IMG/VR virus record: IMGVR_UViG_3300014205_000220
Location: 4,867 to 68,866 of that record
DNA length: 64,000 bases
Strand: one strand, 5' to 3'
From: a virus
Lineage: Duplodnaviria; Caudoviricetes
Every line of letters starts with the position of its first letter. Position 1 is the first letter of the stretch. This document shows, piece by piece, positions 5,603 to 18,471 of this stretch. A program made the translations under genes and the position numbers. The notes beneath the pieces are model-generated. The model saw only the letters and a program-made list of their open reading frames with translations. It did not search any database and was not told the origin of the DNA.

Positions 5603-5666
5603 TTTATTAAGTTTTATCTGTTAATTATTTTTAAAATTACATACCCATACACCCAACCGTTATAGC
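5433..5666 (+). repeat. attC-like site 1 (long loop carrying the 5' part of ORF 5327-5602)
   Basis: R'' 5433-5440, inner arms 5446-5469 and 5626-5650 (near-complementary), R' GTTATAGC 5659-5666. Confidence 0.75.
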
Positions 5667-5672
5667 CAATGC

Positions 5673-5972
5673 CTAAAGAGAGTTCAGTCTATCAATTTCG
5701 GCAGCTATCAATGCACCAGCCTTTTGAAGTTCTCGTACACGATTTTCAGGCGTTCTTTTTAGCCATTTAAGTTCAAAAGGCCATATATGTAAGTGCATAT
5801 CGTTCCCCCATTCATTGTCTATAAAATCAATCGTGTCTTCGGTCATTGCATAATAAGCTGCTGCATTAGCAAGTTCACCTTCTTTATGCTCTGCATCGTG
5901 TTCGGAAGTCCATCCTTCTTTTTCAATTTGTCGCTGCCTTTCTTCGGCAATTAATTCAATTCCAGTTTTCAT
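5673..5972 (-). CDS. Cassette 2 conserved phage hypothetical protein (ERQRQIEKEGWTSEHD family)
   Basis: Motif recalled from many phage proteins, function unknown. Confidence 0.75.
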   Translation of the reverse strand: MKTGIELIAEERQRQIEKEGWTSEHDAEHKEGELANAAAYYAMTEDTIDFIDNEWGNDMHLHIWPFELKWLKRTPENRVRELQKAGALIAAEIDRLNSL

Positions 5973-5996
5973 AATTAAATTTAGTTTGTGGCACTA

Positions 5997-6093
5997 GCTA
6001 TAACAAAGTGTATAGCAAATAGCCTATTAATATTCAGTTTTTAATTCGTTGGTTCGTGCTTCGGCTACTTGCCATACACAAACCGTTGTGGTG
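5997..6093 (+). repeat. attC-like site 2 (97 bp, canonical size)
   Basis: R'' 5997-6004, arms gtgtatagcaaatagcc 6008-6024 / ggctacttgccatacac 6063-6079, R' 6085. Confidence 0.85.
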
Positions 6094-6104
6094 CATTAAA
6101 ACGA

Positions 6105-6392
6105 CACCACAACACGGTATATAAATAATAAATAATGCTAATCAACATCGTGCTTCAAACACTCGCCATTGGTATGTTTTATATATTGGCGTTTAGTCAT
6201 ATTAGCAATCCATCTATCATCCCTACACGCAGGGTTTTTACAATATTTTTGGTTTCCAGAATCCATTTCAAATTCTTCATTGCACCAAATACAGTTCTTT
6301 AAAATACCTGCTTCGCTTATGTTTTCGTGTTTGTGTTGAAAATATCCCATATCGCATTATTTACTATTCATATACCATCTACGTTATAAGCT
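6105..6392 (+). repeat. attC-like site 3 enclosing the complete ORF 6138-6350
   Basis: 23-nt arms 6116-6138 and 6354-6376, complementary at 21 of 23 positions; R' 6383. Confidence 0.8.
6138..6350 (-). CDS. Cassette 3 small zinc-binding protein (inside the attC loop)
   Basis: CIWC...YCKNPAC motif. Confidence 0.65.
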   Translation of the reverse strand: MGYFQHKHENISEAGILKNCIWCNEEFEMDSGNQKYCKNPACRDDRWIANMTKRQYIKHTNGECLKHDVD

Positions 6393-6395
6393 ATG

Positions 6396-6674
6396 TTAAT
6401 CTCCTACTATCAGAAAATCTATTCTGCATTTAGTAACAATGAATTTACCTTCTTTTTCTAATTGATTTCTAACGGCTTTTCGTGCTTTTTCTATATTGGT
6501 AGCACAAACTAATTGAGTTAACTTCATCGGTTCTGAAAAGTTAATTCCATTTCTAATTGAAATTGGCATACTTGCGTAAATATTGTCTTTTTCTTTTTCT
6601 GAATAAAAATATTCTGAATGTGACATATAGTATTTTTTACCAACTGTAGGTAAATTATCATTTAAATCTTCCAT
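6396..6674 (-). CDS. Cassette 4 hypothetical protein
   Basis: ORF fills the space between R' 6383 and R'' 6703. Confidence 0.7.
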   Translation of the reverse strand: MEDLNDNLPTVGKKYYMSHSEYFYSEKEKDNIYASMPISIRNGINFSEPMKLTQLVCATNIEKARKAVRNQLEKEGKFIVTKCRIDFLIVGD

Positions 6675-6702
6675 TTATATTTGTTTTATAAATCAAAAAC
6701 AC

Positions 6703-6839
6703 AGCTTATAACAATCGCTATATTTCAGCTTTAGGTTAGTGTTTAATTTAATGTTCTGTAATTCTTGGTTTAGTCTTTTTCAACCGAAACGCCTTTTGTG
6801 TTTGTTCAGCCGAAATTATAGCGATGGACGTTACAAGCA
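6703..6839 (+). repeat. attC-like site 4
   Basis: R'' 6703-6712, arms 6714-6730 / 6808-6825, R' 6830-6839. Confidence 0.85.
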
Positions 6840-6842
6840 ATG

Positions 6843-7313
6843 TTACACAACATCATGAATAGAAATTCCTCGACCTTCTTTAATGTGATTAAACACATCG
6901 AAATTCCATTCAAGAAACCTTTCAATTATACCAAATTTTACTCCTTTATAATGGATAAAATTGTTTTGAAATTCAATAATATCTTCTTTTGAGTGTTTAA
7001 ATGCGTTGTAATTAATAGGTACGAACAAATTTTCGTTAATGTTTATTTCGTTTGTTAAATCACTTTTTGGTCTAACAATTATTTTAACATCATCAAATTT
7101 TACATCGTATTGATACTCGCCGTTAGCAATAGTCATTTCTTCTTCTCGAAGTTCAACTATTTTGCAATCATTGTGTAATATCTCACGTTCATCGTCAAAA
7201 TATTGAAATAAAAAACTATTAGCCATTGCTATTGATAAATGTTCTAAAGTCAAAACACTGCTTGTAACAGTCGCTTTGTCTAATGGCTGGGCTTGGTTAT
7301 TTTCTGAAATCAT
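6843..7313 (-). CDS. Cassette 5 hypothetical protein
   Basis: ORF track. N-terminus (QPLDKATVTSSV) is encoded by the att arm. Confidence 0.7.
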   Translation of the reverse strand: MISENNQAQPLDKATVTSSVLTLEHLSIAMANSFLFQYFDDEREILHNDCKIVELREEEMTIANGEYQYDVKFDDVKIIVRPKSDLTNEININENLFVPINYNAFKHSKEDIIEFQNNFIHYKGVKFGIIERFLEWNFDVFNHIKEGRGISIHDVV

Positions 7314-7398
7314 AATTTTTAAATTTATTGTTAGTGTATTTTTGTGAAGTCTAGTCTTAAATCGTCGCCACTAGACAAAGTGACCGAACGTTAGCACC
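7259..7398 (+). repeat. attC-like site 5 (loop contains the start of ORF 6843-7313)
   Basis: R'' 7259-7268, arms gtcgctttgtctaatggc 7270-7287 / gccactagacaaagtgac 7367-7384, R' GTTAGCACC 7390. Confidence 0.85.
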
Positions 7399-8944: not shown

Positions 8945-9720
8945 TATCTTAAATCCATTTCTTTTTCAACCATTTCATATAATTCAGCATCGAACTTCGG
9001 GCTTTCACAATCCACATTCAGCAAATAGTCTTTTAACGATTCCGTGCTTTGGTTTTTTATAGAGATAAACATATTATCCAAAAATGTTTTACGGTCAACA
9101 ATCGGTGCTTTATAATCACTTGGCACTTCTAAATTTTCCTTTGCTCTTTGACCCAACTTCGATGGTAACGTTAGTTTTTCCGAAACCTCCATTTTATCAA
9201 ACGATTCCTTGCTCCAATTGAAACTGTTCATTCCGTTCTTCTCTCCTTTTGATTTATTGTGGTGCGATTCCCTTTCAATGGATTTAAGTTCGAGATATTG
9301 CGGAACCCATTTTTGCATTACAGTCTGACCGTCCAACTTATATTCTGTGCCACCTATTTTCCCTTGCCTTGCTAATTTGAACATCAAGACAACATCTTCC
9401 AATGTTTCATAGGCGAATATTTCCGAAAGGTCTAAAGCCATAATCGAAGCCTGTTCTTCCGTGAATTTTTGTTTTACGTTGAAGTTGTCTGATAATCTCA
9501 AAACAAGGTATGTTATGGATTTTACGATGTTGATCTTGTCGATTGACTTTTCAAGTTTTCTTAAAGACAAACTGTTCATTGCTTTTGATACGGTAAGTTC
9601 GCCCTCTAATATCAATAGCTTCATATTGTCATTTTCTGCCAAACATTCTATCAACCGCATCACTGGCTGACCTTTTAAGTTCTGCATCTGATTTTGGGAT
9701 ATTGTTATTCCTGTTTCCAT
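8944..9720 (-). CDS. Replication-associated protein (helicase-loader position)
   Basis: Overlaps and follows the O-like initiator; function inferred from position only. Confidence 0.45.
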   Translation of the reverse strand: METGITISQNQMQNLKGQPVMRLIECLAENDNMKLLILEGELTVSKAMNSLSLRKLEKSIDKINIVKSITYLVLRLSDNFNVKQKFTEEQASIMALDLSEIFAYETLEDVVLMFKLARQGKIGGTEYKLDGQTVMQKWVPQYLELKSIERESHHNKSKGEKNGMNSFNWSKESFDKMEVSEKLTLPSKLGQRAKENLEVPSDYKAPIVDRKTFLDNMFISIKNQSTESLKDYLLNVDCESPKFDAELYEMVEKEMDLR

Positions 9721-10474
9721 TTTCTTGTGATTTTATACTTAATTGTGAAAATTTTTCTCTTAATTTTTTTGTGGATAATATATTTGGTTTCCAAAATTCA
9801 CCTTCATTGCTTCCAAGATACTTAAAAACCTTTGTTAATTGTTCTTTTGTAACCCCATCGTTTTCCATCATCAAACGTATCGGGTCAACATAATTTTTGA
9901 ATTTAGCTTGCTCTTGAATTTTCGATGGTGAATTTTTTTCTTTTAGGTTTTTAATAAAAAGTTGTTGGAATGCTTTTGCTATTTGAAAATATTCTAAAAC
10001 ATTATCTTCCAAGTCTGAAATTTCAATTTCTGACAAAAGAGTATTGTTTATTGTTAACTTGTTTAATTGTTCTTTGTTTAATTGTTTATCTATGTGTTCA
10101 GTTGTCTGCTCAAGTGCTTGCTCACGTGCCTGATTAGATGCTTGTATATGTGCCTGCTCAAGTGCTTGATTAGATGCCTGCTCATTTTTTGATATAGCAA
10201 TAATTCTTGATTGGTGTTGATTCTTTGATTCAGAAACCATTTTTATAAAGCCAAAATCACATAAATCATTAATTACTTTGTAGTAAGTGTTTCTTGAACC
10301 TATACTTAAATTCTCCATAGTTATCATAGTAGGAAGCCCAAACTTTTCTTTTTGACCAAGCCTATTCCATAAATCTACAATATAGAAGTACATATCAGAA
10401 TGAATCGCCTTTACTTTGTCTGGGTTTTCAAACTTATAATTATACCAATACCTTGTCAAGTCGTACCCGTTCAT
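9629..10474 (-). CDS. Lambda O-like replication initiator
   Basis: N-terminal wHTH region, low-complexity Q/A linker, C-terminal FWKPNILSTKKLREKFSQL resembling the lambda O C-terminal motif. Confidence 0.75.
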   Translation of the reverse strand: MNGYDLTRYWYNYKFENPDKVKAIHSDMYFYIVDLWNRLGQKEKFGLPTMITMENLSIGSRNTYYKVINDLCDFGFIKMVSESKNQHQSRIIAISKNEQASNQALEQAHIQASNQAREQALEQTTEHIDKQLNKEQLNKLTINNTLLSEIEISDLEDNVLEYFQIAKAFQQLFIKNLKEKNSPSKIQEQAKFKNYVDPIRLMMENDGVTKEQLTKVFKYLGSNEGEFWKPNILSTKKLREKFSQLSIKSQENGNRNNNIPKSDAELKRSASDAVDRMFGRK

Positions 10475-11627: not shown

Positions 11628-12191
11628 TCAGAAGTAAACCTGACCTTTGCCAGTTATAATTTTGAAATTATATTTTCCTATTATTGAATTTATTTGGTCT
11701 TTATTTAATTTAAACCACTCCCCTCTAACCCTTAACTTATTAAAAATTTTGTGAAGTTTTGTTTCTACATCTAAATCACATATAGCAAATAGTGTTATAG
11801 TTGGTTTCTCTGATTGAAGAGTACGTTCTCTAACTCTTGGATTTTTCGACCTGCCTATTTTGGTTAAAAATGTATTTTCGTCAAACATAAGATATGTCTT
11901 AAAAATTGTTTTATTTAAGTATTCTGGTTTGATTATTTTGGTTGGTATTTTGTTTTTTAAAACAATGGACTCATTTAAAATTAAAACATCTATCAGTAAA
12001 TCATCTTCTGTTGATATATTAGAACTAATTAAAGAAGCTAACGGATTAATTTGTTCGTAATCTTCCAAAACACTAGAACATTCTTTTGCCGATGCATATA
12101 AATTTGAATTAATTTTATACAAAGTTAATCCATAATTATTAGTTATTGTTTTGCTGTTTTTAAAGATTGAAAATTCGATTAGTCTTGTCAT
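11628..12191 (-). CDS. T5orf172/MUG113-like GIY-YIG domain protein
   Basis: TYLM...TKIGRSKNPRVRERTLQ...ETKLHKIF...RGEWF. Confidence 0.8.
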   Translation of the reverse strand: MTRLIEFSIFKNSKTITNNYGLTLYKINSNLYASAKECSSVLEDYEQINPLASLISSNISTEDDLLIDVLILNESIVLKNKIPTKIIKPEYLNKTIFKTYLMFDENTFLTKIGRSKNPRVRERTLQSEKPTITLFAICDLDVETKLHKIFNKLRVRGEWFKLNKDQINSIIGKYNFKIITGKGQVYF

Positions 12192-14067: not shown

Positions 14068-14101
14068 TGTTTATAATTTTTAAGATTTATTAATTGTTTG
14101 G

Positions 14102-14197
14102 TTATAGTCGGATATTGTTTATTGGTGATTGAATTTTACTATACCCTCTACGTTTCATTTCCTGAATGAATTTGGTTTTGTGTTCAGACGTGTTCAT
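14102..14197 (-). pseudogene. Internally deleted tyrosine integrase (IntI-like) remnant, 31 aa
   Basis: Manual translation MNTSEHKTKFIQEMKRRGYSKIQSPINNIRL*. The first part resembles an integrase N-terminal SAM-like start and the last part resembles the IntI C-terminal I.SPL motif. It points away from the adjacent cassette array. Confidence 0.55.
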
Positions 14198-14387
14198 GTT
14201 TTTATATTGGTTTTATTAGTGTTTTAAGATGTTGAATACATATAATAGTTATAGTTAATGCCTTACTCGAACGCTTTATAAAAAAGGCACTAACAATAAC
14301 ACCGTGTATAAAGCAGTCTTTAGGTCGTTTCATTTCTGCAATCTCATTTCCTTTCCCGATGAAAAAACAAAAAGCCATTGCGCTTTT

Positions 14388-14804
14388 TTAGTTACTTACG
14401 GTTAATTCCTCTCCCTCAAAAAAATAAAATAGGTTTTGCAATTGATGAACGTATTTTATAAGAAACTCAATATCGCAATTGGCTATTTTGAAAATTTCAC
14501 AATCAAAGACGCCTATTCTTTTGTTTTCCCAAACAAGGCTAAAACTGTTTTCTTTAAATCCTAGTTTCTTTAACCAATCTTCGGTTAAAATTATTCCCTC
14601 AAAACTTTCAAAAATTTCAACGTTTGTATCTTTAGTTTCAATCCAGATTGAATGAGTTGTATATCCAACATAATCTAATAAAACGACTTGGCCTACTGCC
14701 TTATCCATTACTAATTCAGAGTTTTCATAATCCCAATCACATTCAAGGCCTTTCTCATAATTTCCAACTACGTAGTTACCTATTCTTAATTCGTTTGTTT
14801 TCAT
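14388..14804 (-). CDS. Hypothetical phage protein (MKTNELRIGNYV...KYVHQLQNLFY family)
   Basis: Probable start is the ATG at 14804; common Bacteroidota phage motif. Confidence 0.75.
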   Translation of the reverse strand: MKTNELRIGNYVVGNYEKGLECDWDYENSELVMDKAVGQVVLLDYVGYTTHSIWIETKDTNVEIFESFEGIILTEDWLKKLGFKENSFSLVWENKRIGVFDCEIFKIANCDIEFLIKYVHQLQNLFYFFEGEELTVSN

Positions 14805-14808
14805 GTTT

Positions 14809-15090
14809 TTAATTGTAAATTCCTTTTTTTGCATCGCCTAAAGTTTCATACCACAAATCTTTAGTTTCTTCATCAACATTCCACCAAATAATATCTTCTT
14901 TTTCCTTTTCAATTTTTTTAATTTCCTTTTCTGAAAGTCCTTTTTTTAATTCCTCAATGAGTGATAATATTTTTTGATTTTCCATTTTGTTATTAATTTT
15001 TAGAGTTATTACTGTGTCGCATTTTGACATACATATTTGAAAATAACCTCTTTGGTTTCCAATAGTCTTCCATTCGTGATTACATTTCAT
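14809..15090 (-). CDS. Hypothetical protein (probable start MKCNHEW)
   Basis: The track ORF extends to 15177 across the att arm; the first ATG inside the loop is at 15090. Confidence 0.55.
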   Translation of the reverse strand: MKCNHEWKTIGNQRGYFQICMSKCDTVITLKINNKMENQKILSLIEELKKGLSEKEIKKIEKEKEDIIWWNVDEETKDLWYETLGDAKKGIYN

Positions 15091-15194
15091 ATTTAGTCTT
15101 TTAATTGCACTTCTATTTTTTTTTTTGGCTGTTTTGCCGAGTTGATTTTTAGCCCAGACCGCTTCATACACGATCAACGTTGTAGGTAATAAGC

Positions 15195-15437
15195 CTACTC
15201 ACTTTCTGCTACAATTGGAGATACATAAACAACAATGCTGTCGTAGTTTTCCAATTCTGTCGATATATGATGGCAAACATTTTCAACTAAAAATGCCCTT
15301 GTACCAAACTCGTTTTTCCGCTCCCAATTATATGGTAACATCCATATCGTTTCCCCAATTCTTGGCACATAGTTTTTTGTCGATGTTCCAATTGATTCTT
15401 CAGAGTTTTCTAATTCTACAATAAATTCAATATTCAT
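15195..15437 (-). CDS. Cassette 7 hypothetical protein
   Basis: ORF between R' 15179 and R'' 15482. Confidence 0.7.
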   Translation of the reverse strand: MNIEFIVELENSEESIGTSTKNYVPRIGETIWMLPYNWERKNEFGTRAFLVENVCHHISTELENYDSIVVYVSPIVAESE

Positions 15438-15481
15438 AATTTCAGTTTTTAGTTTTTAGTTTTCAAATCCGTAGGCTTACA

Positions 15482-15534
15482 TACCTACAACAATGTATAA
15501 ACGGCATTAAAACGACCGTTTATACTCACCGTTA
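15482..15534 (+). repeat. attC-like site 7 (minimal, 53 bp)
   Basis: TACCTACAAC-aat-GTATAAACGG-cattaaaacga-CCGTTTATAC-tcacc-GTTA. Confidence 0.85.
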
Positions 15535-17652: not shown

Positions 17653-18471
17653 TTATAAGTAATTAAATTTTCTGTTTGAATGTCTTTTGTGGTTTGGGTT
17701 TATATATGCTCTTTGAGTATCATAACTCATTTTTTTGATTTTGCAAGCGGTTTTTAAGCATTCAAAAATTTCTCCTGTTTCAATAAAAATACATTTCTTG
17801 GCTCTTGGATTATTTTCTCCTGACAACAGTTCGCTTTTTCCAAAAAAGAAGTTGTTTTCGCCTCTCCTTTTTTCTTTCCATTGTTCGCTTTTTAGTATTC
17901 CTTTTCCTCCTTCGCTAATTTTTCTCTTGTGTTCTTTGGAAAGTTTTTTGCCTTTATGTGCTATGCTTAATTTTTGCTTTTGTTCGTCAGACATCTTTTT
18001 GCCGTAATTAGCGTTGTTGATTCCTTTGTTCTTGTCTGATTTTAATAATGCTTCACTAATTTTATTTCTTGTTTCTTTCGTGTGAGTTTTGCCGTAGAAG
18101 TGATTTTCCTTACCAAATCTTTTTCCTTTGCCTTTACTGGCTTTGCTTAATTTCTCTCTATAAGCATCTGTTATTTCAAATCCGATACAACCCTCTCCTC
18201 CGTCGGTTAAATTACATAATATACCTGTTTTCAAGTTTATTCTGCCGTGCTTTTTTATTAATTTAATCTCTATTTTTTTAGCTTCTTCCCAAGAAATATT
18301 TGATTTATATATCTCAACATAAAAACCATATTTTTTAACAAGTCTTTTCCAAAAATCACTTCTTTTTCTGATATCGTTTGCTCTTGTGTATAAATCATCG
18401 TTTGACTTACTTATTCCTACGTAGAATAATTCATCATCTGATTTCTTTTTATGTAAATAAACGTAAGCCAT
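17653..18471 (-). CDS. Free-standing GIY-YIG homing endonuclease with NUMOD3 repeats
   Basis: YVYLH...FYVGIS, NLTDGGEG, repeated SEE.K.KIS / FYGKTHT motifs. Confidence 0.9.
   Translation of the reverse strand: MAYVYLHKKKSDDELFYVGISKSNDDLYTRANDIRKRSDFWKRLVKKYGFYVEIYKSNISWEEAKKIEIKLIKKHGRINLKTGILCNLTDGGEGCIGFEITDAYREKLSKASKGKGKRFGKENHFYGKTHTKETRNKISEALLKSDKNKGINNANYGKKMSDEQKQKLSIAHKGKKLSKEHKRKISEGGKGILKSEQWKEKRRGENNFFFGKSELLSGENNPRAKKCIFIETGEIFECLKTACKIKKMSYDTQRAYINPNHKRHSNRKFNYL

Follow-up and report, generated by a model that had tools for sequence, protein, structure and literature searches.

Two complementary arms that enclose 836 nt of coding DNA in the early region of a marine-type phage are probably the two halves of a single L-type hairpin in an integron-like gene-cassette array. 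By its position, its spacers, the type of its arms and the pattern of its wobble pairs the structure is a true L stem, and this giant stem is an oversized variant of the integron-like gene-swapping system of Flavobacteria-type bacteria and viruses.

The phage and its early region

The window, which is the whole stretch of 64,000 nucleotides that was analysed, comprises bases 4867-68866 of a 68,866-bp virus record of IMG/VR with terminal repeats of 81 bp. The matches of this record among GenBank phages were only weak ones, to Tenacibaculum and Cellulophaga phages. The first 26 kb of the window form the early region, which is read from the minus strand and whose genes include Erf, NinB, Gp157, a GIY-YIG endonuclease and a DNA methylase. 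A search for flanking-gene synteny revealed no neighbours in common among the relatives of Gp157 and of a 301-aa gene, and the comparison of the window with Rfam gave zero matches. The early region also encodes a free-standing GIY-YIG/NUMOD3 homing endonuclease and a T5orf172-like protein (17653-18471 and 11628-12191), neither of which adjoins the arrays described below. At 10091-10180, a 12-nt unit is repeated six times head-to-tail inside the ORF 9629-10474, which results in a four-residue repeat in the protein.

The giant stem

In an earlier note on this DNA, a giant att site was proposed, with arms at 14304-14318 (GTGTATAAAGCAGTC) and 15157-15171 (GACCGCTTCATACAC) that pair at 13 of 15 positions, are flanked by AAC and GTT cores at the spacing of the small sites, enclose two ORFs and lie beside a nearly empty cassette body. 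When the sequence was inspected, the pairing was confirmed, and the cores were located at 14298-14300 (AAC) and 15179-15181 (GTT), with the spacing that is usual for the array family. The two ORFs are present between the arms on the minus strand, and the near-empty body (14248-14300) is a hairpin, GTTATAGTTAATGCC / GGCACTAACAATAAC, with a 23-nt loop (Table 1). The designation itself holds only in part: the arms are probably the halves of one cassette-junction hairpin, but this is not an att site of the classical integron type, as the record contains no integrase, the enzymes found elsewhere are short and XerA-like and the cores agree with those of integrons in AAC/GTT only.

A bare inverted repeat of this quality is common. 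At a spacing of 50-1200 nt, 178 15-mer windows with 13/15 pairing were counted in the first 27 kb, compared to about 68 in shuffled sequences, and thus the plain repeat is not beyond chance. The ungapped match of the arms is 15/17. However, when the arms are read on the minus (gene-sense) strand, both mismatches and one further pair become G·T wobbles, and ATCGTGTATGAAGCGGTCT pairs with AGACTGCTTTATACACGGT in a stem of 19 bp (15174-15156 with 14319-14301) that consists of 16 Watson-Crick and three G·T pairs. The score of this stem (40.5) is the second best in the 27-kb early region, whereas the top score in eight first-order Markov simulations of 27 kb was 36.5.

The complete site extends over 874 nt (14301-15174), with the two ORFs inside. 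Both arms are separated from the adjoining stems by 0-2 nt in the 19-bp reading or by 3-5 nt in the 17-bp reading. The arms belong to the GTGTATG…/…TATACAC type, in which positions 7 and 12 are G·T pairs; these two wobbles are common to the giant, to the L stems at 6079/6008 and 6376/6116, and to an L stem at 2100-2274 of the bacterial locus L264. The arms of the latter (GTGTATGAAACGTAGC/GCTATGTTTTATACAC) almost equal the arm of the giant. As the 19-bp stem scores above all simulations, occupies the exact slot that the grammar of the array provides and carries the signature wobbles, the arms are not a product of chance.

Table 1. Features of the giant stem and of the cassette arrays in the window. 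Positions are those of the window.
Feature	Position	Strand	Remarks
5' arm of giant L stem	15156..15174	-	Starts with GTGTATG motif, which is also found in the L stems at 6079-6063 and in locus L264
3' arm of giant L stem	14301..14319	-	Closes with TATACAC, as L 3' arms do; immediately followed at 14300 by the GTT of the R stem
Core AAC-G (15181-15178) and spacer ahead of giant 5' arm	15175..15181	-	Sense strand CCTACAAC-G-TTG-ATCGTG
Loop of giant stem, 836 nt, two genes	14320..15155	-	Stem search
Loop gene 1, 138 aa, PHROG 10066	14388..14804	-	E=3e-18, full length
Loop gene 2, 93 aa	14809..15090	-	N-terminal part Cys-rich; without family match
Weak terminator-like hairpin and T-run just past loop gene 1	14360..14387	-	Read by eye, AAAAAGC GCAATG GCTTTTT GTTTTTT; below the threshold of the promoter/terminator scan
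Near-empty R hairpin completing the giant cassette	14248..14300	-	Arms 14300-14284 / 14264-14248; 17-bp stem, one T·T mismatch, G·T at position 11; loop 19-23 nt
Upstream neighbour R stem bracketing gene 15195-15437	15178..15492	-	Arms 15492-15472 / 15198-15178; score 30, 0/3000 null pairs; p=0.004
First L hairpin of array 2	15495..15525	-	10-bp stem, 11-nt loop TCGTTTTAATG
Array 1, four cassettes, alternating L and R stems	5657..7386	-	Includes single-gene parallel of the giant

Layout of the cassette arrays

A search for chains of adjacent stems uncovered two arrays in the window, both lacking a recombinase (5657-7386 and 14248-15533), in which stems of the type GTT…AAC ('R' stems) alternate with 'L' stems. 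The chain of array 1 comprises eight stems and that of array 2 four. On the minus strand, array 2 begins with an L hairpin (15525-15495) and continues with an R stem (15492/15178), the giant L stem and an R hairpin (14300/14248). The cassettes follow one grammar on this strand: AAC-G, 3-6 nt, an L stem-loop, 0-3 nt and an R stem-loop running from GTT to AAC. The G after AAC was invariant in the eight canonical sites that were aligned. The R stems are 13-20 bp long, start with GTT, end with AAC and have a G·T pair at position 11, and the local consensus of the cores is approximately YTAYAAC / GTTRTAR (e.g., GTTATAG, GTTACAA and GTTGTAG). Only 4-6 of the 56 early genes are bracketed in this way, which implies that bracketing is a local feature and not a habit of the genome.

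Usually the gene occupies the R loop, and the L loop measures 28-143 nt. In the giant this arrangement is reversed, with 836 nt in the L loop and 19-23 nt in the R loop. Two cassettes in the window have their cargo in the L loop together with an almost empty R hairpin, namely the giant (14248-15178, two genes) and a cassette at about 6084-6390 with one gene. In this single-gene parallel the arms (about 6378-6354 and 6138-6114) enclose the gene 6138-6350, and a nearly empty R hairpin lies beside them. Five bacterial arrays contain about 27 L loops, none of them gene-sized, and the combination of a gene in the L loop with an empty R hairpin was encountered, across all loci gathered, only in the single-gene case of the window itself.

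Several further observations were made on these arrays. An identical 11-nt loop, TCGTTTTAATG on the minus strand, is present at 6094-6104 in an R-type hairpin (6085-6113) and at 15505-15515 in an L-type hairpin, and in both cassettes it caps the 'empty' end, the gene lying in the other loop. We considered this loop as an insertion target or scar and rejected the idea, as the filled loops contained no halves of it and about 1 Mb of loci contained no other hairpin copies. We also discarded the notion that the arms are copies of a 30-nt intergenic promoter/operator motif, since what looked like a motif was an L 3' arm together with the R 5' arm that follows it. Around 7270-7384, the gene 6843-7313 begins inside an L loop, and its reading frame continues across both the L 3' arm and the R 5' arm.

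The loop and its two genes

The family of loop gene 1 is large among phages: 1718 homologues were found, the best with 54% identity, and the start of the gene at 14804 agrees with the N-terminus of the family. A search for its function in the protein atlas returned unnamed viral clusters only, and loop gene 2 had zero relatives in IMG/VR. Neither for the giant unit nor for its cargo were relatives closer than 54% protein identity detected among GenBank phages, IMG/VR and JGI metagenomes. Homologues of loop gene 1 in two other phages (loci L176 and L205) are ordinary single cassettes bracketed by GTT…AAC. The non-coding ends of the giant loop, which are 65 and 69 nt long, were both read, and neither remnants of inner L arms nor GTT/AAC brackets round either of the genes were seen there. 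The terminator-like hairpin just past loop gene 1 is considered as a lead only.

Shared units and compensatory changes

Three units of the window other than the giant are common to otherwise unrelated viruses, and the shared stretches end at the cores. One locus (L024, 99% protein identity) matches the window over 6014-5647 only, that is, over a gene and both of its R arms; two loci (L104 and L105) match it over 6713-6383 only; and an unrelated provirus (L112) matches it over 6387-6111 only, which corresponds to the L stem of the single-gene parallel with its gene and the flanking ATAAC-GTAAAT and GT-GTT. In addition, the R arms contain three compensatory double changes. The pair GTTATAG/CTATAAC of the window is replaced by GTTGTAG/CTACAAC in L024, and the pair GTTATAAGC/GCTTATAAC by GTTAGTAGC/GCTACTAAC in L105. 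Between the window and L112, the 23-nt arms of the single-gene parallel agree at 46 of 46 positions, whereas the rest of the unit differs by about 9%; according to our own calculation the chance of this is about 0.01. Among 80 homologues of the gene 5673-5972 only two are bracketed, and thus the bracket is a property of the system rather than of the gene.

The R and L units travel independently of each other, as the unit shared with L024 is accompanied there by a different L hairpin and the unit shared with L112 by a different R unit. This counts against our preferred explanation, since a single crossover point per site does not account for independent sharing of the R and L units. One possibility is that crossovers occur at both cores; the other is that recombination within the short conserved cores plays a part as well.

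In the provirus L112, moreover, an L 5' arm of 24-27 nt is present as a duplicate, at 872-895 and at 1423-1449, and either copy can pair with the 3' arm at 1531-1557. The first pairing leaves a loop of 638 nt, which encloses an R unit, and the second a loop of 81 nt. The duplicated arm may represent an intermediate on the way towards oversized hairpins.

This arrangement also bears on a different history of the giant, in which neighbouring cassettes each had an L hairpin of similar sequence and contributed one arm, the R cores and inner arms in between were lost, and the remaining arms never formed one working site. We regard such a fusion fossil as unlikely, although it has several observations on its side. 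Besides the 638-nt loop that arises in L112 from a duplicated arm, near-identical L hairpins recur within arrays (82-189 and 556-663 in G003, three copies in L254), and the homologue of loop gene 1 is elsewhere an ordinary R-bracketed cassette. However, the non-coding ends of the giant loop are devoid of visible inner L-arm or GTT/AAC remnants, and the arms pair over all 19 positions, with the wobbles placed where the family has them. Moreover, the arms of the single-gene parallel fit round their loop within 3 nt and are unchanged in a second genome. The reading of the arms as two halves of one hairpin is the more probable one.

Recombinases linked to related arrays

The phage record (68.9 kb) contained no tyrosine recombinase, serine recombinase or Y1 transposase, and a tblastn search of its genome with the array-linked recombinases gave nothing. 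A 33-aa ORF just downstream of array 2 (14097-14197, minus strand) was examined as a remnant of an integrase and rejected, as its similarity to three array-linked recombinases was no better than that of shuffled peptides.

In three of the five other cassette-sharing records (G006, G003 and G005), a tyrosine recombinase of 267-281 aa is encoded within about 2 kb of the cassettes, and in L112 the array ends 70 nt before the start codon of a tyrosine recombinase. One such short recombinase is the 281-aa product of a gene in IMGVR_UViG_3300030392_002189. The array-linked recombinases gave their best scores with the XerA, XerD and XerC models, below the curated cut-offs. Their nearest solved structures are those of archaeal XerA, and IntI was matched in pieces only; the enzymes appear to lack the IntI-specific insert.

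When species genomes were scanned with an alignment of the short recombinases, 80 loci were obtained, mostly from Bacteroidota. GTT…AAC brackets of 13-20 bp, nearly all with a G·T pair at position 11, were present in 34 of these 80 Bacteroidota-dominated loci, in runs of up to nine. The density of brackets was 15.8 per 100 kb at the recombinase loci compared to 2.8-6.6 per 100 kb in control loci. The five bacterial loci that were analysed in detail (L254, L287, L251, L264 and L226) have the same alternating R/L chains, with up to 15 stems, and the longest chains occur in L254 and L287, beside the recombinases. Two further contigs, labelled Bacillota and Azoarcus (L282 and L280), contain runs of 18-20-bp GTT…AAC brackets with G·T at position 11 beside a recombinase. 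This may mean that the system extends past Bacteroidota, or else that the bins are contaminated.

Folding of DNA or RNA

The distribution of wobble pairs indicates which strand is folded. In the 11 stems of the window, the transition mismatches read on the minus strand are G·T in 15 of 16 cases and A·C in the remaining one (p=5e-4). In the window the minus strand is also the mRNA strand, and therefore this bias alone cannot separate a DNA from an RNA reading. In the bacterial arrays, in contrast, the ORFs are antisense to the wobble (folding) strand in 26 of 27 R loops, and L112 has one R unit with a reversed gene. This implies that the bias goes with the site rather than with the transcript. 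In combination with the recombinase found beside such arrays, it favours folded single-stranded DNA over mRNA structure. Thus, of the two routes named in the earlier note, long-range folding of single-stranded DNA and a double-stranded DNA mechanism, the former is favoured. We also observed that cassette genes lie antisense to the folding strand in bacterial arrays and sense to it in phage arrays; the polarity of the cassette genes thus appears to be reversed between phages and hosts.

The same data bear on the possibility that the stems act in early mRNA, where long-range helices would enclose messages for cutting or for protection of their ends, and that the exchange of cassettes is ordinary recombination at conserved joints. 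All genes of the arrays in the window are on the folding strand, RNA tolerates G·U pairs well and in the single-gene parallel 3 nt separate the 5' arm from the start codon of the gene, which is what such a role in mRNA would lead one to expect. Nevertheless, we consider it improbable, given the antisense ORFs of the bacterial arrays, the tyrosine recombinase that arrays adjoin and the opposite-strand gene in an R unit of L112. In addition, a weak terminator-like hairpin separates loop gene 1 from the 3' arm.

Still less probable is a transposon-like element, small and double-stranded, with terminal inverted repeats that a transposase would bind and that would not fold into hairpins. The cargo is indeed flanked by inverted repeats, and L stems show conservation in the outer 7 nt of their arms. 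However, target-site duplications were lacking, no transposase was detected when the Y1 family was searched for and the early proteins were scanned, and the strong wobble bias towards one strand is not expected of terminal repeats that are bound as duplex. Finally, a chance inverted repeat between two intergenic stretches is hardly credible despite the frequency of 13/15 repeats at such distances (the 178 windows in 27 kb), because the 19-bp sense-strand stem surpasses every simulation and both arms sit in exact grammar slots with signature wobbles.

Comparison with known systems

Lytic phages, among them a Polaribacter phage, have been reported to carry integrase-less clusters of attC sites (CALINs; Qi et al. 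2023, PMC9892861), and the phage arrays described here resemble these clusters in being devoid of a recombinase gene. As in integrons and CALINs, single-gene cassettes are joined into arrays by imperfect hairpin sites with AAC/GTT cores. The layout of attC sites, with an inner and an outer paired box, an unpaired spacer, a variable end loop and folding of one strand, is also found here, and so is the cassette-specific complementarity between the start core and the end core of a cassette.

The differences are nevertheless considerable. Integrons depend on an IntI-type integrase with the IntI-specific insert, whereas the present record has none and the enzymes of related arrays are proteins of 267-281 aa closest to archaeal XerA. 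The cores of integrons, RYYYAAC/GTTRRRY, share only AAC/GTT with those found here. Unlike attC sites, the arrays have long co-varying R stems of 13-20 bp with a fixed G·T pair at position 11, and the genes of the phage arrays lie on the folding strand, which is opposite to the orientation in integrons. The sites known as attC are about 55-141 nt long and have a non-coding loop, whereas the loop of the giant comprises 836 nt and is coding. Within the arrays of Bacteroidota and phages that are linked to Xer-like recombinases, the giant conforms in the alternation of R and L stems and in the type of its L arms, but it deviates from the rule of a short L loop with the cargo in the R loop and has no adjoining recombinase gene. 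A literature search found no published description of this Xer-like cassette system of Flavobacteria-type bacteria and phages.

Three other systems offer partial parallels. The pdif modules of Acinetobacter plasmids are bounded by 28-bp duplex sites (11-6-11) without long hairpins, which stand in alternating orientation, are acted on by Xer-type recombinases in trans and allow independent exchange. Here too, gene modules would be bounded by alternating recombination sites, be exchanged independently and depend on a Xer-type recombinase supplied in trans. In contrast to pdif, a spacer of about 6 nt is found only at the joint after AAC, the stems co-vary and the wobble bias points to the folding of a single strand. 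The leader-trailer helices of 16S and 23S rRNA act in RNA and are cut by RNase III; they too have long-range complementary arms that enclose a whole functional unit, of 0.2-3 kb, but in the bacterial arrays the same grammar is antisense to the genes and lies beside a recombinase. The promoter-early stem-loop (PeSL) cassettes of T4-type phages have intergenic stem-loops that border shuffled early-gene modules, and these reportedly are direct repeats acting through homologous recombination. Repeated intergenic stem-loops at the borders of early modules in lytic phages are common to both systems. However, PeSLs are not known to have a recombinase partner, AAC/GTT cores or cassette-specific co-varying arms.

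A possible mechanism and its implications

In the mechanism that we propose, a short XerA-like tyrosine recombinase would act at the AAC/GTT cores on a folded single strand. The phage itself encodes no such enzyme, but genes for one lie next to arrays of this kind in related viruses and in Bacteroidota hosts, which might be its source. An excised circle of single-stranded DNA would have its R stem and L stem stacked on either side of a small asymmetric internal loop, which would give a rod with two end loops, and the cargo could sit in either of these loops. The point of cutting and the shape of the rod are inferences, as is any continued recombination of a site of 0.9 kb. That loop cargo is a regular second form of cassette, and that a site with a 0.8-kb loop still folds and recombines, we consider possible but rather doubtful.

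Integron sites are thought to need short non-coding hairpins, as folding limits recombination. Here the signatures of the family have been kept perfectly round a coding loop of 836 nt, and in the single-gene parallel the arms have remained unchanged while the gene between them diverged. If such sites still work, cassette systems can move multi-gene units, long single-stranded DNA must fold in infected cells, and lytic phages without a recombinase can trade early genes by means of an enzyme borrowed from the host or a co-infecting virus. If loop cargo were regular, it would imply the folding of single-stranded DNA in vivo across nearly 1 kb and would provide a route by which whole operons enter arrays. 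The giant stem thus adds a well-anchored example to the Xer-like, non-IntI cassette system of Flavobacteria-type bacteria and their phages.
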